NCBI RefSeq assembly: GCF_053078305.1
Contig: NZ_CP166879.1
Reading direction: 5' to 3' (one strand)
DNA length: 64,000 nt
Shown here: positions 1 to 26,037 of the stretch, piece after piece
Position numbering within the stretch: position 1 is the first letter of the stretch
Layout of the letters: each line of letters opens with the position of its first letter
Made by a program: the position numbers and the translations under genes
The notes under the pieces: model-generated
Seen by the model: only the letters and a program-made list of their open reading frames with translations
The model's database searches: none
What the model was told of the DNA's origin: nothing

Positions 1-382
1 TGTCATAAGTAAATATTGAAATGCTATCATCCCCGATCACTAACCGTTCTTGTAGATCAGGGTTTATGAAATCATCATTATTTCTATAAAATTCATTTAC
101 GGCAAAAAGGTTTTTAACTGAAGGTTCTGGAATCGAGAGGCTAAATAATCGTAATCCATTAACTTCGAATCCATCCATTGCTCTTAAAAAAGTAAGATAA
201 TCAGGTTGATTCTTAAAAAGAATACTAACTTCATTACATAACTTCTCCAGGCAATTAGTTGAATTAGAATTAAATTCTATTTGGATTATACTTTCAATAA
301 ATGATTCCTTGAGCGGTGCTTCAAATGGATAGTCTAAATCATTCATCATTTTTATTAATTTGTTTATTTGGGTTTTAGTCAT
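1..382 (-). CDS. Partial ORF (first ~127 codons; runs off the window start) immediately downstream of yhhZ; candidate immunity protein for the HNH toxin; positionally equivalent to yrhA
   Basis: Minus-strand ATG at 382-380 overlaps the yhhZ stop (TGATGA arrangement) and stays open to position 1 (begins MTKTQINKLIKMMNDLDYPFEAPLKESF...). AT-rich like yhhZ. Immunity role is inferred from position only. Confidence 0.5.
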   Translation of the reverse strand, partial: MTKTQINKLIKMMNDLDYPFEAPLKESFIESIIQIEFNSNSTNCLEKLCNEVSILFKNQPDYLTFLRAMDGFEVNGLRLFSLSIPEPSVKNLFAVNEFYRNNDDFINPDLQERLVIGDDSISIFTYD

Positions 383-1560
383 CATTTTGTGGGTTCCATA
401 ATATTTTTCATGGGAGGATAAATTGAGCCAGATGGAATGGCCCAGGGAGTGATTTTGCTTTCACCTACTAATATTCCCTTAGCTATTCGTGATTGCATGT
501 TAGTAAAAACTTTATGATATGGTTCGTTTTCGATTAATACTAAATTTTCGAAATCATTAGTACCACCATCATCTAGAGATAGTTTATGGTGAACATTATA
601 ATTTAGAGGAACATAGCCCTTTCTCATTCTTAAAAGGTCTTCGGTGTTGAATCTTCCAGATGCTTCGGAGGTTTTTGCAAGTTTGATAAGAAAATTTTTT
701 CTTACAGTTTTGTTAAACTCCTTTCGTAAGTTAGCTAAGTCTTTTGAAGGTCTCTTAATGTATATTATTTCTATTATGTCTATGCCATCAAGAAGTTTTT
801 GTTGACCTCTAAGTTTGCCTAAGTAACTATTTATTTCTGTATATGTATCAACTTTAGAACGCTTTGTTAAAAGAATAGATGCTGTTGCTATCGCTATGCC
901 CGCTGTTTTTTCATTTAGTATTTGATCATAGCCTTTGATTGCATCTCCACCCAGTTTTTCCGCAGTATCTCTGAAACCTTCAATGTTCCCATTGTATACG
1001 CCACCAGCAGCAAGTAGCCTGCCAACAGCTTTGCTGTTTAACGTTTTGAAACGATTATTTGTTTGGTTTTTTGAATTTGGTAAAAACAAACGGTTATAAT
1101 TTTCAGGGAGTGCCAAATAGCTGAACTCGGTATTTGCGATAAGATGTTGACAGAGGATAAATTCATAACTAACAGTTATTGTTTCTGTATCCAGTTGATT
1201 TTCAATGATCTGATGATGAATAGCCGATAAAAAAGCGCCTCTTAGTTGTATATAATAATACTTTTCCCATCTGCCAAATCTATTGATTCTATAAAAGTCA
1301 AATTCCATAAATAATTGCTCATTATTGTTAATGGAATTAATAAGTAATGGAGTGCTTTTATCAATTAATTTACAAAATGTTATACCCTGTAACTGTGAAC
1401 CAAGCCCCGTATTAGTAATGCTATTTGCGAGTGAGAATGTAAATATTTCATTCTCATGCCCGCTCTGCCAGCGATTACCTATAGATTCAGTAGTCCCACA
1501 ACCTGCGGAGATGCTTCCTTGTTGTTCTCCCGTTACTGTCAGGTAAACAATATTACTCAT
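382..1560 (-). CDS. yhhZ: Hcp-family (T6SS tube protein) N-terminal domain fused to a C-terminal HNH-type nuclease toxin domain (Hcp-ET type effector)
   Basis: 392-aa ORF. N-terminus has Hcp-like features including an FYRIN motif; C-terminus has NVHHKLSLDDGGTNDFENLVLIENEPYHK, an HNH/colicin-DNase-like His-metal finger. Length and position match my memory of K-12 yhhZ. AT-rich. Confidence 0.85.
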   Translation of the reverse strand: MSNIVYLTVTGEQQGSISAGCGTTESIGNRWQSGHENEIFTFSLANSITNTGLGSQLQGITFCKLIDKSTPLLINSINNNEQLFMEFDFYRINRFGRWEKYYYIQLRGAFLSAIHHQIIENQLDTETITVSYEFILCQHLIANTEFSYLALPENYNRLFLPNSKNQTNNRFKTLNSKAVGRLLAAGGVYNGNIEGFRDTAEKLGGDAIKGYDQILNEKTAGIAIATASILLTKRSKVDTYTEINSYLGKLRGQQKLLDGIDIIEIIYIKRPSKDLANLRKEFNKTVRKNFLIKLAKTSEASGRFNTEDLLRMRKGYVPLNYNVHHKLSLDDGGTNDFENLVLIENEPYHKVFTNMQSRIAKGILVGESKITPWAIPSGSIYPPMKNIMEPTK

Positions 1561-1760
1561 CCCTGAAAAGTCCTTTTATGGCATGCTATTTTATCAATGG
1601 CACTATTATGCTTGTTAATTGTTATTTATTTACTCCAGGAAATTGTAGGCGTATATATTAAAAAATAAAATATTACACTTTAGGAAGTAATTATGAGGTA
1701 AATCTCAATATATTTATTGGGAAAATAAATATATTAAAGGAAGGTATGCCGATTTTGAAT

Positions 1761-1790
1761 GACACCCTTTTTCCATATCAGAAAAAGGGC
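1761..1790. terminator. Inverted repeat ccctttttc / gaaaaaggg just 3' of yhhY; possible terminator
   Basis: 9-bp perfect stem with a 7-nt loop seen in the sequence; flanking U-tract is weak. Confidence 0.35.
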
Positions 1791-1796
1791 ACTATA

Positions 1797-2285
1797 TTAC
1801 TTCACCCGCGCCATATAATACGCATCGACATATTCACCATTACGTAATGCGTACTTCTTACCAGTCCCTTCAATTTCAAAGCCGTATTTTTTATAGACCT
1901 TAATTGCTGGCGCGTTATCGACGAACACCGTTAGCTCGATACGAGCTACCCGCAACCAGTTGTCGCACATTTCAATCATCTCTCGCATAAGGGCGCTGGC
2001 GACGCCGCGATTCTTCCAACGGGAGTCGACACAAATACCAAAATCGGCAACATGACTGCGGCGTGGGCGCTGTTGCACGTCAATGGTGAGGTGACCCACG
2101 ACGGTTCCATCAATACAGGCAACTAACTGTTTGATGCCGGGACGATCGGCGAGTCGCTCCTGCCACATATGATCGGAAGGATGAGGCACCTGTAGTGTGT
2201 TGCAATACACCTCCGGCTGGGCGTGAATCTGCCTGATGGCCTCGTAATCGCGCGTTTCAGCATGGCGTATCACTATCTCACTCAT
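1797..2285 (-). CDS. yhhY: GNAT-family N-acetyltransferase
   Basis: Start placed at the internal MSEIVIRHAETRDYEAIRQIHAQPEV (162 aa) rather than the longer 193-aa ORF; GNAT motif RWKNRGVASALM; synteny next to ryhB. Confidence 0.85.
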   Translation of the reverse strand: MSEIVIRHAETRDYEAIRQIHAQPEVYCNTLQVPHPSDHMWQERLADRPGIKQLVACIDGTVVGHLTIDVQQRPRRSHVADFGICVDSRWKNRGVASALMREMIEMCDNWLRVARIELTVFVDNAPAIKVYKKYGFEIEGTGKKYALRNGEYVDAYYMARVK

Positions 2286-2370
2286 TCCTTTGTCCTCTTT
2301 GGGGTAAATGTCCCTTTCAACATCATTGACTTTCGAATGCGAGTCAAATGCATTTTTTTTGCAAAAAGTG

Positions 2371-2407
2371 TTGGACAAGTGCGAATGAGAATGATTATTA
2401 TTGTCTC
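2371..2407 (+). promoter_or_regulatory. ryhB promoter with Fur box (gaatgagaatgattattattg)
   Basis: Fur-box-like AT-rich hexamer repeats directly upstream of the RyhB 5' end, overlapping a -35/-10-like ttgaca...tattat region. Confidence 0.75.
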
Positions 2408-2497
2408 GCGATCAGGAAGACCCTCGCGGAGAACCTGAAAGCACGACATTGCTCACATTGCTTCCAGTATTACTTAGCCAGCCGGGTGCTGGCTTTT
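2408..2497 (+). ncRNA. ryhB: RyhB small RNA (Fur-repressed, iron-sparing regulator)
   Basis: Sequence GCGATCAGGAAGACCCTCGCGGAGAACCTGAAAGCACGACATTGCTCACATTGCTTCCAGTATTACTTAGCCAGCCGGGTGCTGGCTTTT matches RyhB as I remember it, ending in a GC hairpin plus a run of nine T; lies between yhhY and yhhX. Confidence 0.93.
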
Positions 2498-2619
2498 TTT
2501 TTGATCTTTCGTTCTCAATTTATCCTCGGGAAGTGCTTGTGTTCGTTATGCGCACTCCAGTAGGAACCACGTCCGCTTTGCGCTAAGGTGTAAATAACCA
2601 CCTTAAAAAGGACGAAATC

Positions 2620-7843: not shown

Positions 7844-9940
7844 ATGGAAAAGCACGCAGCTGAATTGCTTTTACAGCGGATGTTAGGAAATACCACCGCT
7901 ACTTTCAGGGAAGGGCAATGGGAAGCCATAGACGCGGTGGTGAACCAACGGCGAAAACTGCTGGTTGTCCAACGCACTGGCTGGGGGAAAAGTGCTGTGT
8001 ACTTCATCGCCAGTAAAATCTTCCGCGATCGCGGCGCTGGCCCGACAATTATCATCTCTCCTTTGCTTGCCCAGATGCGTAACCAGGTTGCCGCCGCTGA
8101 ACGGTTAGGTATTACGGCTGAAACGTTGAATTCTACAAACAGGGAAGAATGGCAGCGCATTAGCGATAAGTTGCTGCAAGGTGCGGTCGATTGCTTGCTG
8201 GTTTCCCCGGAACGTTTGGCAAACCAGGACTTTATCGAAACGGTTTTATATCCTATAGCCGATCGTATTGGCTTGCTTGTGGTCGACGAGGCGCACTGCA
8301 TCTCTGATTGGGGCCACGATTTTCGCCCGGATTACCGACGTATATTAGATATTTTGCGCCAACTACCTGCGAATACCCCTGTTCTGGGTACAACCGCGAC
8401 AGCGAATAACCGTGTCGTTGAGGATATCCGTCAGCAATTGGGTGACATTGTGATTCAGCGTGGAACGCTGGCTCGCGAAAGTTTGGCGCTTGATGCCTTA
8501 GTCTTAGGTGAACAGTCATCCCGTCTGGCATGGTTAGCAACGGTTATCCCTCAGTTTTCCAAATCGGGAATTGTTTATACCCTGACTACTCGCGATGCCG
8601 AACTTGTCGCCGAGTGGTTAAGGAAAAATGGTATCAGTGCATTTGCTTACTACAGCGGCGTGACTTGTGAAGGCGCGGAAGATTCTAATACTGCCAGGGA
8701 ATATCTGGAGCAGGCGTTGCTGGCAAATAAAATTAAAGTGCTGGTTGCGACAACGGCGCTGGGAATGGGCTTTGACAAACCGGATTTGGGGTTTGTTATT
8801 CATTACCAGATGCCAGGTTCGATAGTTGGTTACTACCAACAGGTGGGGCGTGCCGGTCGCGGTATCGATTCTGCTGTTGGCATACTGCTTTGCGGCAGTG
8901 AAGACCGTGCTATTCATAAATTCTTCCGTGAAAGCGCCTTTCCTGCGGAGGCGCAAATTCATGAATTACTCAACGTACTTAGCGTGAATGACGGTCTTAC
9001 CTTACGAGGCATTGAACAACGGACGAATCTCCGTTATGGGCAAATAGAAAAAGCACTGAAATTATTGGTAGCTGAAAATCCATCGCCTGTGGTGTATACC
9101 GAGAAATTATGGCGCAGAACAATTGTCAGTTTTTCTCCTGACCATGAACGAATTAACCATTTGATGAATCAGAGAAAAAGTGAGCTGGCAGACGTTGAAA
9201 GCTATATCACGACCAAGGAGTGCAAAATGCAATTTCTGCGCCGCGCACTCGATGAGCCAGGTGCCGAACATTGTGGTAAATGTAGCAGTTGTCTTCAGCA
9301 TCCGTTGTTGTCGCCCGACATTGATAGCGGCTTACTCCATGCGGCAAACTTATTTATTAAACACGCTGACCTGTCATTAAATCTCAATAAACAGGTGGCA
9401 GCTGGGGCTTTTACGCAATACGGATTTAAAGGGAACTTGCCTGCGATTTTACAAGGATCTACGGGGCGAATCCTTTCTCGTTGGGGAGATTCCGGGTGGG
9501 GAAAGCAGGTAGCACAGGAGAAAAAAACGGGGCGATTCAGTGATGAACTGGTGGAGGCATGTGCGGAAATGGTTCGCCAACGCTGGAATCCGCATCCTGA
9601 ACCAACCTGGGTATGCTGCGTTCCTTCATTACAGCACCTCGACCTGGTTCCTGATTTTGCCCGGCGACTGGCGGCGAAACTTGGCTTACCTTTTATTGAT
9701 GCCATTGAAAAAGTCGTGGACAATCCACCGCAGAAAATGCAGCAAAACCGTTTCCACCAGTGTCAAAATCTCGACGGGGCGTTTGTGATTACCCCTCCTT
9801 TGATGCCTGGTCCGGCGTTGCTGGTTGACGATATCGTGGATTCTGCATGGACGCTGACAGTTCTGACAGCACTGTTACGCCAGGCAGGTTGCCCGACGGT
9901 TTATCCTCTTGCCCTTGCTTCTACCTCGGTAAAAAATTGA
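7844..9940 (+). CDS. RecQ-family superfamily-2 DNA helicase with Zn-binding module, fused to a C-terminal ComF/GntX-like phosphoribosyltransferase-fold domain (apparently degenerate)
   Basis: 698 aa. Walker A QRTGWGKS; RecQ-type motif II VVDEAHCISDWGHDFRPDY; later helicase motifs TATA and QQVGRAGRG; four-Cys cluster CKMQ...HCGKCSSC. The last ~150 aa parallel the GntX C-terminus (NLDGAFVI...ALLVDDIVDSAWTLTVLTALLRQAGCPTV vs GntX NLKNAFRL...MVIVDDVVTTGSTVAEIAQLLLRNGAATV). Good SD (gcaggag) 8 nt upstream. I do not recall this gene in K-12. Confidence 0.8.
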   Translation: MEKHAAELLLQRMLGNTTATFREGQWEAIDAVVNQRRKLLVVQRTGWGKSAVYFIASKIFRDRGAGPTIIISPLLAQMRNQVAAAERLGITAETLNSTNREEWQRISDKLLQGAVDCLLVSPERLANQDFIETVLYPIADRIGLLVVDEAHCISDWGHDFRPDYRRILDILRQLPANTPVLGTTATANNRVVEDIRQQLGDIVIQRGTLARESLALDALVLGEQSSRLAWLATVIPQFSKSGIVYTLTTRDAELVAEWLRKNGISAFAYYSGVTCEGAEDSNTAREYLEQALLANKIKVLVATTALGMGFDKPDLGFVIHYQMPGSIVGYYQQVGRAGRGIDSAVGILLCGSEDRAIHKFFRESAFPAEAQIHELLNVLSVNDGLTLRGIEQRTNLRYGQIEKALKLLVAENPSPVVYTEKLWRRTIVSFSPDHERINHLMNQRKSELADVESYITTKECKMQFLRRALDEPGAEHCGKCSSCLQHPLLSPDIDSGLLHAANLFIKHADLSLNLNKQVAAGAFTQYGFKGNLPAILQGSTGRILSRWGDSGWGKQVAQEKKTGRFSDELVEACAEMVRQRWNPHPEPTWVCCVPSLQHLDLVPDFARRLAAKLGLPFIDAIEKVVDNPPQKMQQNRFHQCQNLDGAFVITPPLMPGPALLVDDIVDSAWTLTVLTALLRQAGCPTVYPLALASTSVKN

Positions 9941-11142
9941 TGAATCTTTCAGCCAATGCACAAGCAACTCTCCTGCTAACCAGCGATTTTTCTCGCGCGG
10001 CGGCGAGTGAGTATAAACCTCTTAGTAATAGTGAATGGGGGAAGTTTGCATTATGGCTGAAGCACCAACGTATCAGTCCCGCCGAGCTTCTGGTGCCGCA
10101 ACCGCAAGAGAAACTTACAGGCTGGAGCGATCCGCGTATTTCTCAGGAGCGTATTCTTGGCTTGCTGGCGCGTGGTCATAGTCTGGCGTTGGCGGTAGAT
10201 AAGTGGCAACGCGCCGGTTTATGGATCTTAACCCGCGGAGATGCTGATTATCCCGTTCGCTTGAAAAACCGATTGCGAACGGATGCACCTCCCGTTTTAT
10301 TTGGCTGCGGGAATAAAGCATTACTGCAAGCGGAAGGTATGGCGATTGTTGGCTCGCGAGATGCTCCGACTGACGATTTGCGCTATACCCAACAACTGGC
10401 CGCGAAACTGGCCCAACAGGGGATTTGCGTTATCTCTGGTGGTGCGCGAGGTATTGATGAATGTGCAATGGCGTCGGTACTGGAGGCCGGGGGAACTGCC
10501 GTTGGCGTATTAGCTGATAGCTTGTTAAAAACGAGTACGTTAGTGAAATGGCGTGAAGGGCTTATAGCAGGCAACCTGGTGTTGATTTCGCCGTTTTACC
10601 CAGAGGTACGTTTCACCGTCGGCAATGCGATGGCGCGAAATAAATATATTTATTGCCTTGCTGAAAGCGCAATGGTTGTACGTGCGGGAATGACCGGTGG
10701 AACGATAACCGGGGCGATGGAGGCATTAAAACATCAGTGGCTGCCTGTGCAGGTTAAACCAAATCAGGATATGCAATCAGCCAATTCACGATTAGTAGAA
10801 AATGGGGCGTCATGGAGTGCTGAACAGGCTGAGAATGTGACGATCAGACTGCCAGACGTTCCTGGGCTGATGTATGACAGAGCACTCCGTAACGCTCAAC
10901 CAGAACTGTTTTCGCTGCATGAAGATGACGCAAATTACGCAGTAATGCCCGCGTATACGCCTGTCGATTTTTATCAACTCTTTGTGGCGGAACTGGCGAT
11001 CCTTGCAAAGGAATCGATAAGTATTGAAAGGCTGGCGTCTTGTACTGGTTTAACCATCGAACAAATTAGTGTGTGGCTGAACCGCGCAGAAGAAGAGGGA
11101 AGGGTTATCCGATTGGGCGAAGGTCATTATCAGTTCAGGTAA
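9940..11142 (+). CDS. DprA/Smf-like (SLOG-superfamily Rossmann) DNA-processing protein with N- and C-terminal extensions
   Basis: Start taken at the ATG overlapping the helicase stop by 1 nt (ttgATGaat), not the upstream in-frame ATG of the ORF track. DprA core motifs MAIVGSRDAPTD, ISGGARGIDECAMASVLEAGG, ISPFYPEVRF, ARNKYIYCLAESAMVV. About 90-aa C-terminal tail, possibly a winged helix. Confidence 0.8.
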   Translation: MNLSANAQATLLLTSDFSRAAASEYKPLSNSEWGKFALWLKHQRISPAELLVPQPQEKLTGWSDPRISQERILGLLARGHSLALAVDKWQRAGLWILTRGDADYPVRLKNRLRTDAPPVLFGCGNKALLQAEGMAIVGSRDAPTDDLRYTQQLAAKLAQQGICVISGGARGIDECAMASVLEAGGTAVGVLADSLLKTSTLVKWREGLIAGNLVLISPFYPEVRFTVGNAMARNKYIYCLAESAMVVRAGMTGGTITGAMEALKHQWLPVQVKPNQDMQSANSRLVENGASWSAEQAENVTIRLPDVPGLMYDRALRNAQPELFSLHEDDANYAVMPAYTPVDFYQLFVAELAILAKESISIERLASCTGLTIEQISVWLNRAEEEGRVIRLGEGHYQFR

Positions 11143-11145
11143 TAA

Positions 11146-11181
11146 AACAGGTGCCGCGTCTGGTTGTGTGCAGCACCTGTT
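11146..11181. terminator. Imperfect inverted repeat (acaggtgc...gcacctgt) between the convergent DprA-like gene and yhgN
   Basis: Complementary arms about 8 bp each, seen in the sequence; no strong U-tract. Confidence 0.35.
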
Positions 11182-22833: not shown

Positions 22834-24351
22834 ATGGACAGAATGATGCCAAATAGAAAATGGATTTTGACCTCGCTGATAATGACTTTTTTCGGCATCC
22901 CCATACTGGCGCAATTTTTGGCAGCGGTTGTTGCCATGCTGGGTGTCGGGCTTACCGGTATTATTGAAGTTTGTAATATCCTTATCACGCCAACAATTTA
23001 TCTTCTACTCAACGTCTTTATGCTGACGCTGGGGGCGATAATAATATTTTTCTCTGGTCGCGTGTGGGCCGGTGATAGCGCGCCAGAAAACAGAGAAATA
23101 GCCGTCTGGCGGCAATGCTTTTTTCTCTTACCCGCGCTATTAACCCTGGTTGGCTGGATAATCACGCTACATCTGGCAGATTATCAATTTCGCCAGATGG
23201 GAGCTGGTTGGTTGGCAAACCTTATGCTTCCCTGGTTGGGCGTTTTTTTAGTCTCATTAGTGGGTGGTGAGTACTGGTGGATGGTCATTATTCCCGTTGG
23301 GGTGCATATCAGTTTTTCGCTGGGATACGCCTGGCCGACCAGATATCCTTTATCCGGCACGTCCGGACTACGTTGCCGTAACTTACTCCTGTTTCTACTT
23401 CTCTTACTTGGTATTGTCGCCGGGTATCAGGCCCATTTATATAAGCAGCAAAATCCTGGTGTCGGTGTACGCGAAAATATTGATATCTGGGCCTGGCGAC
23501 CCGATAAACTCAATAATCGACTGACGCCGCTGCGTGGCAAACCGCAAATTCAGTTTAGGCAAAACTGGCCGCGAATCGATGGCGCCACGGCTGCGTACCC
23601 AATTTATGCTTCTGCATTTTATGCATTAAGTGTAATACCAGAGGATTTTCACGTTTGGGATTATCTGGAAAACTCTCGTACGCCAGAAGCATATAACAAA
23701 ATCGTTAAGGGCGATGCTGATATTATTTTCGTGGCGCAACCTTCCGGTGGGCAAAAAAAACGTGCAAAGGAATCTGGTGTCACTTTGCTGTACACCCCCT
23801 TTGCCCGTGAAGCATTCGTTTTCATCGTCAATGCGGATAATCCGGTTAATTCCCTGACTGAACAACAGGTGCGTGACATTTTCAGTGGTGCAATTACCAA
23901 CTGGCGTACTTTTGGCGGTAACGATCAGGAGATCCAGACCTGGCAGCGCCCGGAAGACTCTGGCAGCCAGACAGTGATGCAATCACAGGTCATGAAAAAT
24001 GTCCGCATGATCTCGCCGCAGGAAACGGAAGTGGCAAGCGTGATGGAGGGAATGATTAAAGTCGTTGCCGAATACCGTAATACAAACAACGCAATAGGCT
24101 ATACCTTCCGCTATTACGCGACGCAAATGAATGCTGATAAAAATATAAAATTGCTAGCGATTAACGGTATTACACCGACGGCGGAAAACATTCGCAACGG
24201 CAAATATGCGTACATCGTCGATGCATTTATGGTGACGAGAGAAAATAAAACGTCAGAAACACAAAAACTGGTCGAATGGTTTTTAACGCCGCAGGGGCAG
24301 AGTCTGGTAGAAGATGTGGGATATGTGCCGCTGTATAAAATCTTACCTTAA
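22834..24351 (+). CDS. Membrane-anchored protein: N-terminal polytopic domain (~6 predicted TM helices) plus C-terminal periplasmic solute-binding-protein-like domain (PBP superfamily, possibly phosphate/oxyanion type)
   Basis: 505-aa ORF. First ~200 aa hydrophobic; C-terminal part has SBP-like segments (DGATAAYPIYASAFY, FVAQPSGGQ, LLAINGITPTAENIRNGKYAY). K-12 carries only a pseudogene (yzgL) at this position as far as I recall. SBP subfamily is a guess. Confidence 0.6.
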   Translation: MDRMMPNRKWILTSLIMTFFGIPILAQFLAAVVAMLGVGLTGIIEVCNILITPTIYLLLNVFMLTLGAIIIFFSGRVWAGDSAPENREIAVWRQCFFLLPALLTLVGWIITLHLADYQFRQMGAGWLANLMLPWLGVFLVSLVGGEYWWMVIIPVGVHISFSLGYAWPTRYPLSGTSGLRCRNLLLFLLLLLGIVAGYQAHLYKQQNPGVGVRENIDIWAWRPDKLNNRLTPLRGKPQIQFRQNWPRIDGATAAYPIYASAFYALSVIPEDFHVWDYLENSRTPEAYNKIVKGDADIIFVAQPSGGQKKRAKESGVTLLYTPFAREAFVFIVNADNPVNSLTEQQVRDIFSGAITNWRTFGGNDQEIQTWQRPEDSGSQTVMQSQVMKNVRMISPQETEVASVMEGMIKVVAEYRNTNNAIGYTFRYYATQMNADKNIKLLAINGITPTAENIRNGKYAYIVDAFMVTRENKTSETQKLVEWFLTPQGQSLVEDVGYVPLYKILP

Positions 24352-24453
24352 GCAGGATAATCATATGGATACCGGTATTATTCGCCTGAACGCGGCCAAT
24401 GCTCGTTTTGTTTATCAACCGTTTACACGCAATCAGCGGAAGAGGGAGTAATT

Positions 24454-25230
24454 ATGCAATGCAGCCCCGCCATGCAGGCATTAATTGAGCAGATTTATCA
24501 TATTTTTCGTCGTTATCCGGTGCCGTCGAGATTTCATGTTTGTTGTCCTTACTGCTTTAGCGAAGAACAACAACAAGCCTTAAGAGGGGTTTCACTGCGT
24601 GCCATACCTTTCCCTTTATTACATGCCTGGGGAACAAGTATTGGTCCTACCCCGCAAAATGATGATGAGATTCGCTATTTATTACCCAGATTGTTTGAAT
24701 TTATTTCCCAAAGGCAATTTCCAGGCATTTATGAAGGCTGCTGTTTACAGAGAATAGCAGAGGCAGATAACCAGAACTGGCGAACGGACGAACTACAAAT
24801 AATTAGCGATTTCGCCTATTTATATATGCAGGATTGGGTGTCGGCTAAGGAGGTCGTAGAACTGGAAATAATATTAGAAATGTTTTATCGCGGTGGTATA
24901 AAGATTGAACCCTTACTTGACGCCATTATGTCCATTTCCGGTTACTGGCCGACGGCGTCTATGGCATGTTTGCTCTGGCGTAACAGTAAAGAATACGTCG
25001 AAAATAGCGATTTTGAGCAGAGTGATGATAATAAAACTATTACCACTCAAATTAATACCTGGGCTAGAAATAATCATCCTTTTCTGAAAGAAAGAGCGCG
25101 ACAAGCGATTGAGAACCCACTAAAACAGCCTGAACCAATGACAGAATATCAAGTCTGGGAAGACGACTGGATGATTGATGAGTGTTTATGCGCGATGTAT
25201 GACGCATCACCCGAACAATCAGGACAATAA
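24454..25230 (+). CDS. Hypothetical soluble protein, Cys-containing N-terminus (CCPYC); no family recognised
   Basis: 258-aa ORF, AT-richer than flanking core genes; its stop is 2 nt before the next ORF's start. Confidence 0.5.
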   Translation: MQCSPAMQALIEQIYHIFRRYPVPSRFHVCCPYCFSEEQQQALRGVSLRAIPFPLLHAWGTSIGPTPQNDDEIRYLLPRLFEFISQRQFPGIYEGCCLQRIAEADNQNWRTDELQIISDFAYLYMQDWVSAKEVVELEIILEMFYRGGIKIEPLLDAIMSISGYWPTASMACLLWRNSKEYVENSDFEQSDDNKTITTQINTWARNNHPFLKERARQAIENPLKQPEPMTEYQVWEDDWMIDECLCAMYDASPEQSGQ

Positions 25231-25232
25231 AG

Positions 25233-25823
25233 ATGAATAAAATCAGACTTTATATTTATCCGCTATATCTCGGCTTTGTTATTGTGCCGTTGTTGGTGTG
25301 GCCGACGGTGGTTGTTGTTGGTATCACACTGAGTTTTCTAATGGAGATGCTGTTCTCAAATTCGTTCATGCACAGGCGTATTTCCCTTCTGGAATTACAA
25401 CTTGGGTTATTGGCTGAATATACGCTTTTGTTCTGCGCCATATGTTGCGTTGGTTGGCAATTTGCTCGCATAACTCAATCTGAATTGAAAAGCAAACTGC
25501 ATTATTGGCTGGTATTTGTACCAGTTTATTTCTGGTTGCTCCTGTGGAATATCATTTTCTATGTCGCGCCAGCGAAAATTGCATTGCTGGAAAATATGCG
25601 CAGTTTCTTTCTGACCGTTGTCTGGCTCCCACTGAATTTTTCGCCATTTTGGTCTCAACCGTGGATTGACTTTGTCGGTCCAATAAGCGCACAGCTTGGT
25701 TTTGCGTTGGGATATTATTGCCAGTGGCGTAGCAAAAATAGAAGCCAGAGGAAGAAGTGGGGCGAGTGGGTAATGTGCTTAAGTTTTGTTACGTTGGGTA
25801 TGATGGCGTGGGCTTTGCGGTAA
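25233..25823 (+). CDS. Hypothetical integral membrane protein (4-5 predicted TM helices)
   Basis: 196-aa hydrophobic ORF tightly coupled to the preceding ORF; AT-rich. Confidence 0.5.
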   Translation: MNKIRLYIYPLYLGFVIVPLLVWPTVVVVGITLSFLMEMLFSNSFMHRRISLLELQLGLLAEYTLLFCAICCVGWQFARITQSELKSKLHYWLVFVPVYFWLLLWNIIFYVAPAKIALLENMRSFFLTVVWLPLNFSPFWSQPWIDFVGPISAQLGFALGYYCQWRSKNRSQRKKWGEWVMCLSFVTLGMMAWALR

Positions 25824-25876
25824 TTCCCTGAATCAAAAAGTAGGTCAGATTGTTGACAACGTGGCGCTTTGTTCAT

Positions 25877-25975
25877 GCCTGATGCGGCGTGAACGCCTTA
25901 TCAGGCCTACAAAATCATGCAAATTCAACATATTGCATAAACCACGTAGGCCTGATAAGCGTAGCGCATCAGGCA
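25877..25975. repeat. BIME: two inverted REP sequences (gcctgatgcggcgtgaacgccttatcaggcctac ... gtaggcctgataagcgtagcgcatcaggca)
   Basis: Canonical enterobacterial REP consensus (GATGCGGCG ... GGCCTAC) read directly; intergenic, downstream of glpD. Confidence 0.85.
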
Positions 25976-26037
25976 ATTTTGTGTTTGTCATCAGTCTCAG
26001 GCCAGATTGAAATCTGACCTGATCACCTTACGTTAAT

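Follow-up and report, generated by a model that had tools for sequence, protein, structure and literature searches.

The yhhZ-yrhA cassette of Escherichia coli as a very probable ortholog of the Hcp-ET1/ETI1 effector-immunity pair

An Hcp-HNH protein and the product of the gene downstream of it have been described in Escherichia coli as Hcp-ET1 and ETI1. Secondary accounts of the work of Ma et al. (2017, Virulence 8:1189) present Hcp-ET1 as an HNH DNase that is delivered by T6SS2 and neutralized by ETI1 (PMC6730261, PMC6099711), and the passages on Hcp-ET1 in a third source likewise speak of an HNH DNase with T6SS2 delivery (PMC9990079). Metal-dependent DNA cleavage is reported for Hcp-ET1 in these same secondary sources (PMC6730261, PMC6099711, PMC9990079); hexamer assembly and secretion by the T6SS are reported in review passages (PMC6730261, PMC6099711). 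The same orphan Hcp-HNH protein, with ETI1 downstream, also appears in a preprint. The pair is that of STEC004, O104:H4 C227-11 and 55989, located at ggt-yrhB-yrhD-yrhA-hcpHNH-yhhY and with the same architecture as the proteins considered here.

In this study we analyzed a stretch of 64,000 nucleotides of contig NZ_CP166879.1 (assembly GCF_053078305.1), referred to as the window, whose first 1,796 positions (1-1796) carry the E. coli yhhZ-yrhA cassette. We consider it highly likely that this cassette is the ortholog of the published Hcp-ET1/ETI1 pair and that it would encode a T6SS-delivered DNase together with its immunity protein. Our own results establish the domain architecture and catalytic motif, the predicted folds, the co-inheritance of toxin and immunity genes, orthology and synteny, and the base composition; for DNase activity, T6SS2 dependence and neutralization by ETI1, as for the binding of H-NS in K-12, we draw on the literature. 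We infer that the properties reported there carry over to the present allele and that the source strain has a suitable T6SS.

The yhhZ-yrhA locus and its relation to Hcp-ET1/ETI1

The hcp-ET1 ortholog yhhZ occupies 382-1560 on the minus strand as an ORF of 392 aa with an ATG start, and its product combines an Hcp tube domain with a putative HNH DNase toxin. On the same strand follows the ETI1 ortholog yrhA (1-385), coding for a candidate immunity protein of predicted SUKH fold; it is cut by the window edge and leaves the window after 128 of its 164 codons (codons 1-128). The two genes share an ATGA at 382-385 (minus strand), in which the TGA stop of yhhZ lies at 382-384 and the ATG of yrhA at 383-385. 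A sequence-only reading of the window had already placed the start of the downstream ORF on the yhhZ stop codon, and the RefSeq annotation of yrhA, which begins at the ATG of this overlap, agrees. The overlap suggests that yhhZ and yrhA are translationally coupled.

The Hcp/TssD domain comprises aa 1-147 of YhhZ (1120-1560, minus strand). These residues matched TIGR03344 (TssD/Hcp1, NCBIfam) with 123.7 bits compared to a cut-off of 58.9 (E 6.6e-36), the match spanning profile positions 1-161 of 167, and aa 18-139 matched Pfam T6SS_HCP (PF05638; E 1.8e-12). Solved Hcp structures (3he1, 6a2v, 5mxn) were matched as well, with E-values from 1.4e-10 to 5.6e-12. With a score above the curated threshold, YhhZ can be assigned to the Hcp/TssD family at the level of sequence profiles.

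In E. coli O104:H4 C227-11 the orthologous locus (AAF13_RS24945/RS24950) lies between yhhY and yrhD/yrhB/ggt. Compared to the C227-11 proteins, the effector of the window is 95% and the immunity protein 99% identical, and the HNH region of YhhZ (aa 317-388) does not differ at all. Locus and high identity together indicate that YhhZ/YrhA are orthologous to Hcp-ET1/ETI1. The 19 amino-acid differences between YhhZ and the C227-11 protein include 12 within the Hcp domain, and the tract diverging from C227-11 (about 1170-2270) looks like a recombination mosaic. Our link to Hcp-ET1 is drawn from the locus tag in the review and from the descriptions in secondary sources; the tag, given in the Hcp-ET1 passage of the review as AAF13_24945 (PMC6730261), is one gene off the RefSeq numbering in C227-11. 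The RefSeq naming accords with this identification. The yhhZ-yrhA pair is real and has an earlier literature, experiments included, under the name Hcp-ET1/ETI1, and the present result mostly confirms the existing annotation.

In the mechanism that we propose, the Hcp domain would allow YhhZ to be built into the tube of a T6SS whose genes lie elsewhere in the genome, which in the published case is T6SS2. Contraction of the sheath would fire YhhZ into a neighboring bacterium, and there its C-terminal HNH (His-Me finger) domain, resembling those of colicins and pyocins, would degrade DNA. YrhA, presumably translationally coupled, would bind the nuclease and neutralize it in producing cells and their kin. 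As a specialized T6SS effector of the Hcp-ET1/ETI1 type, yhhZ-yrhA might serve as a contact-dependent DNase weapon shaping inter-strain competition in E. coli.

An AT-rich cassette in a variable slot and its likely activity

The cassette stands out by its composition. The GC content is 0.327 for 1-1796 and 0.52 for 1797-64000, and 1-1796 is the lowest-GC stretch of its size in the window. In the intergenic region 5' of yhhZ (1561-1796, no strand), presumed to hold the promoter and the H-NS-bound region, GC drops to 0.284 and between 1600 and 1745 to 0.233, so that the AT-rich block with an extremely AT-rich upstream region noticed in the sequence-only reading holds in numbers. A consensus promoter scan found no sigma-70-like site on the minus strand 5' of yhhZ, and the promoter was therefore not located; the totals of the scan were not above those of shuffled sequences (8 found, 9.5 expected). 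A repeat search gave neither direct repeats at the flanks of the island nor convincing inverted repeats, and thus no sign of an integration scar or of the ends of a mobile element.

The cassette is present in 3780 of 5426 complete E. coli genomes (~70%). In genomes without it, similarity to the window begins at 1797, so that the variable ggt-yhhY slot has its right edge at 1796/1797. In O157:H7 a different gene occupies this slot; the DUF4225 protein of O157 had no NCBIfam match, and neither had YrhB and YrhD. The ggt-yhhY slot can hence be viewed as a variable site with alternative cargo. Published ChIP-chip data of K-12 show H-NS-bound "promoter islands" in yhhZ and yrhA (PMC3661553), which answers in the affirmative the check on H-NS binding suggested earlier. 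The horizontal origin proposed along with it, and H-NS binding, fit the presence/absence polymorphism, the exchanged slot in O157:H7 and the H-NS binding in K-12. The cassette would accordingly be described as an AT-rich, horizontally acquired insert between ggt and yhhY, whose expression is probably kept low by H-NS.

These features bear on whether the cassette is active in the source strain. It might be a horizontally acquired, H-NS-silenced remnant that goes undelivered because a compatible T6SS is absent or not expressed, and that persists only through being harmless when silent, an explanation that we regard as somewhat unlikely and that concerns activity only, the identity of the genes being unchanged. 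K-12 appears to be in such a silenced or stranded state. Its YhhZ (b3442) and YrhA (b3443) are orthologous and located at the same position, with a DNA identity of 97.2% over 1-2700 of the window. For K-12 and B laboratory strains an absence of T6SS genes is reported (PMC6730261). K-12 nevertheless has an intact yhhZ beside a yrhA that is split by IS1E after codon 130 (the window ends 5 bp short of this junction), and the cassette is therefore probably silent or unused in some strains. In strain A16, the genome closest to the window (99.9% identical), yrhA is intact with 164 codons. Silencing is also consistent with H-NS binding of both genes in K-12, with a spontaneous yhhZ-yrhA deletion that arose at no reported cost, and with one strain that lost yrhA, yhhZ and yhhY next to IS903B. 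Moreover, dN/dS of yhhZ reached 0.3-0.5 compared to 0-0.07 in the neighboring genes (small counts), indicating weaker constraint, and by collinearity with the annotated strain A16 no T6SS structural genes occur at 1-50630 of the window. The effector thus is indeed an orphan within this part of the window, as had been stated before. Nevertheless, the yhhZ ORF is intact and its catalytic motif invariant, the locus is retained in about 70% of the complete genomes, dN/dS of yhhZ stays below 1, and the STEC ortholog is reported in secondary accounts to be active and delivered (PMC6730261, PMC6099711). These observations speak against a silenced or stranded state.

A portable toxin module with a colicin/pyocin-like nuclease

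The C-terminal part of YhhZ (aa ~174-392; 385-1041, minus strand) corresponds to a portable toxin module, a helical subdomain followed by a predicted colicin/pyocin-like HNH DNase, which is common to proteins with N-termini other than Hcp at 47-70% identity. Three N-terminal partners were found, namely Hcp, DUF8093 and a third domain that occurs on IncHI2 plasmids and in an ICE. Four contexts were examined, and in 4/4 of them, covering all three partners (Hcp in E. coli/Citrobacter, DUF8093 in Enterobacter, and the domain of the Pantoea ICE / IncHI2 plasmids), a gene of the YrhA family (NF038335) lies at most 20 nt 3' of the toxin module. One toxin/immunity pair with swapped N-terminal domains is the pattern of polymorphic toxins, to which the YhhZ module can be assigned by sequence comparison.

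Without Hcp, the toxin/YrhA module occurs within the transfer regions of conjugative IncHI2 plasmids and of an ICE, a point that could merit a separate look, as could the sharing of the module with DUF8093 proteins. The N-terminal partner in these elements is present in such regions of about 500 conjugative plasmids, for the most part IncHI2. It is conceivable, although we find it doubtful, that HNH/YrhA is a portable cassette independent of the T6SS, which has become linked to different N-terminal domains on at least three occasions; the Hcp fusion of E. coli, with the copies in T6SS-less strains such as K-12, would then be one branch. Such a cassette might lead a T6SS-independent life as a conjugation-associated weapon or an addiction/exclusion module, and the divergent Hcp-domain allele of the window could be the outcome of recombination that re-matched it to another T6SS.

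We consider it very unlikely that the cassette itself has a T6SS-independent role, either as an intracellular addiction or defense-like cassette or through another route of delivery, with Hcp as a mere scaffold. The Hcp-less modules in IncHI2 transfer regions and the ICE would agree with such a role, as would the presence of the cassette in K-12, which has no T6SS, and the older description by Blondel et al. of an "evolved Hcp not linked to T6SS function" (PMC2907695). However, the TssD cut-off is exceeded by a wide margin in the Hcp domain, T6SS2-dependent delivery of the ortholog is reported in the secondary literature (PMC6730261, PMC6099711), and none of the PADLOC models matched YhhZ, YrhA, YrhB or YrhD. 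As PADLOC gave no match for these four island proteins, the reading as a known defense system was dropped. A separate proposal, in which yhhZ-yrhAB are genes for methionine-to-cysteine conversion (PMC3309015), was rejected because nothing in the sequences supports it; it appears to confuse the names with yrhA/yrhB of B. subtilis.

The details of the toxin module point to a nuclease. The HNH catalytic motif (aa 324-349, HHKLSLDDGGTNDFENLVLIENEPYH; 514-591, minus strand) contains nine residues that were invariant in an alignment of 35 sequences: H324, H325, D330, D331, G333, N335, N339, L340 and H349. In the AlphaFold model the HNH part reached pLDDT values >90, and the motif residues fall on a strand-strand-helix arrangement. 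A Foldseek search of the PDB returned the DNase domains of pyocin S2/AP41 and ColE7/E9 as its top 21 matches (probability 1.00), with an rmsd of ~2.5-2.9 A over ~77-80 columns and 17-28% identity, at modest E-values (1.6e-3 to 2.5e-2, extending to ~1e-1). Both features expected of an HNH / His-Me finger nuclease, the catalytic His with the metal-ligand Asn/His motif and the similarity in fold, were found in YhhZ, which has been placed among the His-Me finger nucleases (PMC5714182). Taken together with the Hcp family match, the invariant motif and the predicted fold sustain the Hcp-HNH "extended toxin" architecture recognized in the sequence-only reading. That the HNH is catalytically dead, so that YhhZ would serve as a decoy or a structural Hcp whose C-terminus is degenerate and lacks nuclease activity, is hardly credible: the Pfam HNH match taken alone is marginal (PF01844, aa 322-343, E 0.015), the wording "degenerate HNH domain" was used for YhhZ (PMC2907695), and at the variable position of HHKL[S/P]LDD the E. 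coli proteins carry Ser and the homologs of other genera Pro, but every canonical HNH position is invariant across the 35 homologs, the high-confidence model resembles active colicin/pyocin DNases, a tightly linked immunity gene, which would be pointless beside an inactive toxin, is kept across contexts, and an ortholog with DNase activity reported in a review passage (PMC6730261) is identical over aa 317-388.

YrhA and comparison with known toxin-immunity systems

Since yrhA is truncated in the window, the full-length protein of A16 was compared with NF038335, the YrhA family of NCBIfam, and matched it with an E-value of 1.5e-36. No Pfam family was matched by YrhA even at E <= 10, so that no SUKH/SMI1 model was reached. 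When the YrhA alignment was compared as a profile with PDB sequences, the only matches were chance ones (antibody chains, SATB1). Some UniRef names for YrhA nonetheless read SMI1/KNR4. The AlphaFold model of YrhA (pLDDT 85.6, pTM 0.83) consists of mixed helices and beta strands, and its top Foldseek matches were 3d5p (SMI1/KNR4, BF1740), 2prv (YobK), 2icg, Knr4, FBXO3 and Syd. The model superimposed on SUKH-type structures (3d5p, 2prv, Knr4, the SUKH domain of FBXO3, Syd) with TM scores of 0.49-0.63, and YrhA is accordingly predicted to have the SUKH (SMI1/KNR4) alpha+beta fold, which includes B. subtilis YobK. A predicted SUKH fold for YrhA despite the missing Pfam family match is a modest addition to the annotation.

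The SUKH proteins were reportedly linked to immunity by Zhang, Iyer and Aravind in 2011. That the ORF downstream of yhhZ encodes the cognate immunity protein, as had been proposed from the gene order, remains plausible in view of the YrhA-family gene that accompanies the toxin module in 4/4 contexts and of the predicted fold. Compared to SUKH immunity proteins such as YobK, YrhA is alike in its predicted fold, and yrhA is located directly 3' of a nuclease toxin; YrhA differs in that it lacks a Pfam SUKH/SMI1 sequence match and forms an NCBIfam family of its own (NF038335). The immunity proteins of colicins and pyocins are small and helical. YrhA, in contrast, has 164 aa and a predicted SUKH fold, no such immunity protein was among the top 50 PDB matches of its model, and similarity of the Im type is therefore not indicated by the model.

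The toxin module recurs, at 58-69% identity, in DUF8093 (PF26362)-HNH proteins of Enterobacter, Leclercia and Pantoea. These too are encoded at orphan chromosomal loci and are followed 3' by a YrhA-family gene, but their N-terminal domain is not Hcp. A literature search found no mention of PF26362. PIX-type T6SS effectors, with which the DUF8093 proteins may be compared, reportedly are orphan too and count HNH toxins among them.

The best structural matches of the YhhZ nuclease remain the DNases of colicins E7/E9 and pyocins S2/AP41, with which the model shares the common HNH / His-Me finger core. Relative to these bacteriocins, YhhZ has an additional conserved helical subdomain before the DNase core (aa ~174-235, "NSKAxGRLLAAGGVYNGNxEGFR..."). 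The two groups also differ in delivery: colicins and pyocins are delivered through receptor and translocation domains, whereas YhhZ would reach its target as a T6SS Hcp fusion.

Layout and composition of the yhhZ block

A second reading of the sequence bore out the coordinates and all descriptive statements of the sequence-only reading on the ORFs, the ATGA overlap and the low GC content. On the minus strand, window positions 1-1796 contained an AT-rich leader and two closely packed ORFs. The yhhZ ORF (382-1560, 392 aa, N-terminus MSNIVYLTVTGEQQG) ended in a TGA stop (382-384) overlapping the ATG (383-385, same strand) of the second ORF, yrhA, of which 128 codons lie inside the window before the left edge cuts it. 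The GC content of 1-1796 was 0.327 (0.284 in intergenic 1561-1796 and 0.233 in 1600-1745) versus 0.52 in the other 62 kb, making it the most AT-rich among stretches of equal size in the 64-kb window. A simple promoter scan located no promoter for yhhZ. To the right of the block followed yhhY (1797-2285, minus strand), the RyhB sRNA (2437-2501, plus strand; Rfam RF00057, 83.1 bits), whose terminator lies at 2476-2494, and then yhhX and yhhW.

YhhZ and its candidate immunity protein

The proposed fusion of an Hcp domain to an HNH nuclease was confirmed at both ends of YhhZ. Residues 1-147 form an Hcp/TssD domain (TIGR03344, 123.7 bits; cut-off, 58.9 bits); PF05638 also matched the N-terminal part (Pfam, E = 1.8e-12), and solved Hcp structures matched the domain at E of about 1e-11. 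As the Pfam match to HNH at the C-terminus was weak by itself (E = 0.015), this part was tested by alignment and by a structure model. Across 35 homologues, with identity down to 48%, the residues H324, H325, D330, D331, G333, N335, N339, L340, and H349 were invariant; the motif reads HHKLSLDDGGTNDFENLVLIENEPYH. In the AlphaFold model of residues 151-392, the HNH part reached pLDDT values above 90, and the best PDB matches found by Foldseek were all colicin/pyocin DNase domains (pyocin S2, pyocin AP41, ColE7, and ColE9), with a probability of 1.00 and an rmsd of about 2.5-2.9 Å over about 77-80 columns, at modest E-values (1.6e-3 to about 1e-1).

The sole family match of YrhA was its own NCBIfam family (NF038335); neither Pfam models nor PDB sequences matched it. 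Its AlphaFold model (pLDDT 85.6, pTM 0.83) matched the SMI1/KNR4 protein BF1740 (3d5p), B. subtilis YobK (2prv), yeast Knr4, the SUKH domain of FBXO3, and Syd, which jointly indicate a predicted SUKH fold. Zhang, Iyer and Aravind reportedly described SUKH in 2011 as a superfamily of immunity proteins against nuclease toxins. The toxin module of YhhZ (residues ~174-392) was found behind three distinct N-terminal domains. E. coli and Citrobacter have it joined to Hcp, whereas Enterobacter, Leclercia, Pantoea, and others have DUF8093 (PF26362) in this place; the third domain occurs in a Pantoea dispersa ICE and IncHI2 plasmids. In all four contexts examined, a YrhA-family gene was located at most 20 nt 3' of the module. 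Toxin and downstream gene are thus co-inherited across domain swaps, the signature of a polymorphic toxin-immunity pair, and this, with the predicted SUKH fold, supports the suggestion that the downstream ORF encodes cognate immunity.

About 600 plasmid records, mostly from Enterobacter, Salmonella, Klebsiella, and Citrobacter, matched YhhZ (E ≤ 1e-5), and 497 were predicted conjugative; among the plasmid matches listed, the toxin module had ~47% identity to YhhZ. Two IncHI2A records were examined; in each, a ~353-aa 'HNH endonuclease' gene and then a 168-aa YrhA-family gene adjoin TraG-N/TrhH in the transfer region, and the P. dispersa ICE carries the same pair at 75% identity to the plasmid protein (plasmid and ICE loci L013 4638-6213, L014 4638-6215, and L010 4001-5581). 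The DUF8093 fusion (4001-5663 in L007-L009, from Enterobacter and relatives) occupies orphan chromosomal sites, with a YrhA-family gene 3'. DUF8093 may be the published PIX T6SS delivery domain; the module in IncHI2 and ICE transfer regions and the DUF8093 fusion may be undescribed.

A variable site between ggt and yhhY

Using Megablast, at least 80% of window 1-2400 was recovered on the E. coli chromosome in 3,780 of 5,426 complete genomes, while nearly all others matched only from ~1797 onward, that is, yhhY. The best match was strain A16 from otter faeces (99.9% identity), where yrhA is intact (164 aa), yrhD, yrhB, and ggt follow it, and an AT-rich tract of about 2.4 kb covers yrhD, yrhA, and yhhZ. 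K-12 MG1655 has the same genes as b3442 (yhhZ, annotated 'putative endonuclease') and b3443 (yrhA), but its yrhA is split by IS1E after codon 130; with just 97.2% identity over 1-2700, the window is distinct from K-12. Window position 1 falls 5 bp from the K-12 insertion point (7428/7429 in the K-12 locus L006), within the 9-bp target duplication. This closeness may be a coincidence, or an IS insertion in this AT-rich hot spot may mark the end of the source contig; the window itself showed no IS sequence.

In O157:H7 (L004 4100-6000), an unrelated 303-aa DUF4225 protein replaces yrhB-yrhD-yrhA-yhhZ, and this other cargo marks the ggt-yhhY slot as a variable site. The DUF4225 protein has a glycine-rich hydrophobic stretch, and small ORFs flank its gene. 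One strain lacked the segment from yrhA through yhhY and had an IS903B transposase gene there instead. Citrobacter koseri showed the syntenic order yhhY-hcpHNH-yrhA-ggt. The island seems to hold a second, orphan immunity gene, as the Imm35 model of Pfam ('Immunity protein 35') matched YrhB at E = 4.6e-23 (L001 7157-7441, beyond the window, left of yrhA; in K-12 a 'putative heat shock chaperone'). The 51-aa yrhD between yrhB and yrhA matched nothing.

A horizontal origin had been suggested from base composition, and the variable presence of the cassette between strains, the DUF4225 gene in O157:H7, and an overlap with predicted foreign DNA all support it. In K-12, this overlap concerns 'promoter islands' within yhhZ and yrhA that were H-NS-bound in two ChIP-chip data sets (PMC3661553). 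The suggested H-NS silencing is therefore supported for K-12; for the present strain we infer it.

Over positions 1-50630 the window aligned collinearly with A16, whose annotation of this stretch lists the gnt, asd, glg, glpD, rtc, mal, and feo genes but, as the sequence-only reading had held, no T6SS structural genes. K-12 is devoid of T6SS genes (PMC6730261), and since it keeps yhhZ with a disrupted yrhA, the cassette is probably silent or stranded in some strains.

Compared to K-12 and the O104:H4 strain C227-11, differences were few in yrhA and in the toxin-encoding half of yhhZ (98.5-99.5% identity), whereas ~1170-2270, covering the Hcp-domain half, the intergenic region, and yhhY, was dense in differences (about 94-95% identity). 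Because divergence from both strains jumps within yhhZ, from about 1.5% to about 5%, the tract may have been imported by recombination, with one breakpoint near the domain boundary. Just 29 complete-genome records had a best match of at least 99% identity. Within yhhZ, dN/dS reached 0.31 in the Hcp part and 0.49 in the toxin part, compared with 0-0.07 in yhhY, yhhX, and yhhW; by these values, which come from small counts, yhhZ is less constrained than those genes but still under purifying selection.

At ~7850-11150, between gntU and yhgN, the window and A16 carry genes for a RecQ-family helicase and a DprA-like protein; the RecQ gene is present but frameshifted in O157:H7, and in the K-12-like C227-11, without the insertion, yhgN directly follows gntU. 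The segment between glgP and glpD (~22850-25980) holds two genes for phosphate-binding proteins of the PstS family together with one hypothetical gene, and, after the yhhZ block, it has some of the lowest-GC stretches of the window; 24336-25187 did not align with A16.

Relation to Hcp-ET1/ETI1

The earlier observation is confirmed and its interpretation supported; the cassette is already known and annotated. Its description as yhhZ-yrhAB genes of methionine-to-cysteine conversion (PMC3309015) finds no support in the sequences and apparently reflects a name clash with B. subtilis yrhA/yrhB. In a classification of His-Me finger nucleases, YhhZ forms a separate group of T6SS effector nucleases (PMC5714182). 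C227-11 has orthologues of both genes (AAF13_RS24945, yrhA; AAF13_RS24950, tssD) in the same order, ggt-yrhB-yrhD-yrhA-hcp-yhhY, with 95% identity for YhhZ and 99% for YrhA (using the A16 protein, near-identical to that of the window); YhhZ residues 317-388 around the HNH motif are identical. A review table assigns locus tag AAF13_24945 to Hcp-ET1 (PMC6730261), one gene off in RefSeq numbering. This orphan Hcp-HNH gene is also reported in a preprint, which places ETI1 downstream of it. Since the work of Ma et al. 2017 is cited here through secondary sources and the tag differs from the RefSeq numbering, the case for yhhZ-yrhA as orthologues of Hcp-ET1/ETI1 is second-hand, but strong.
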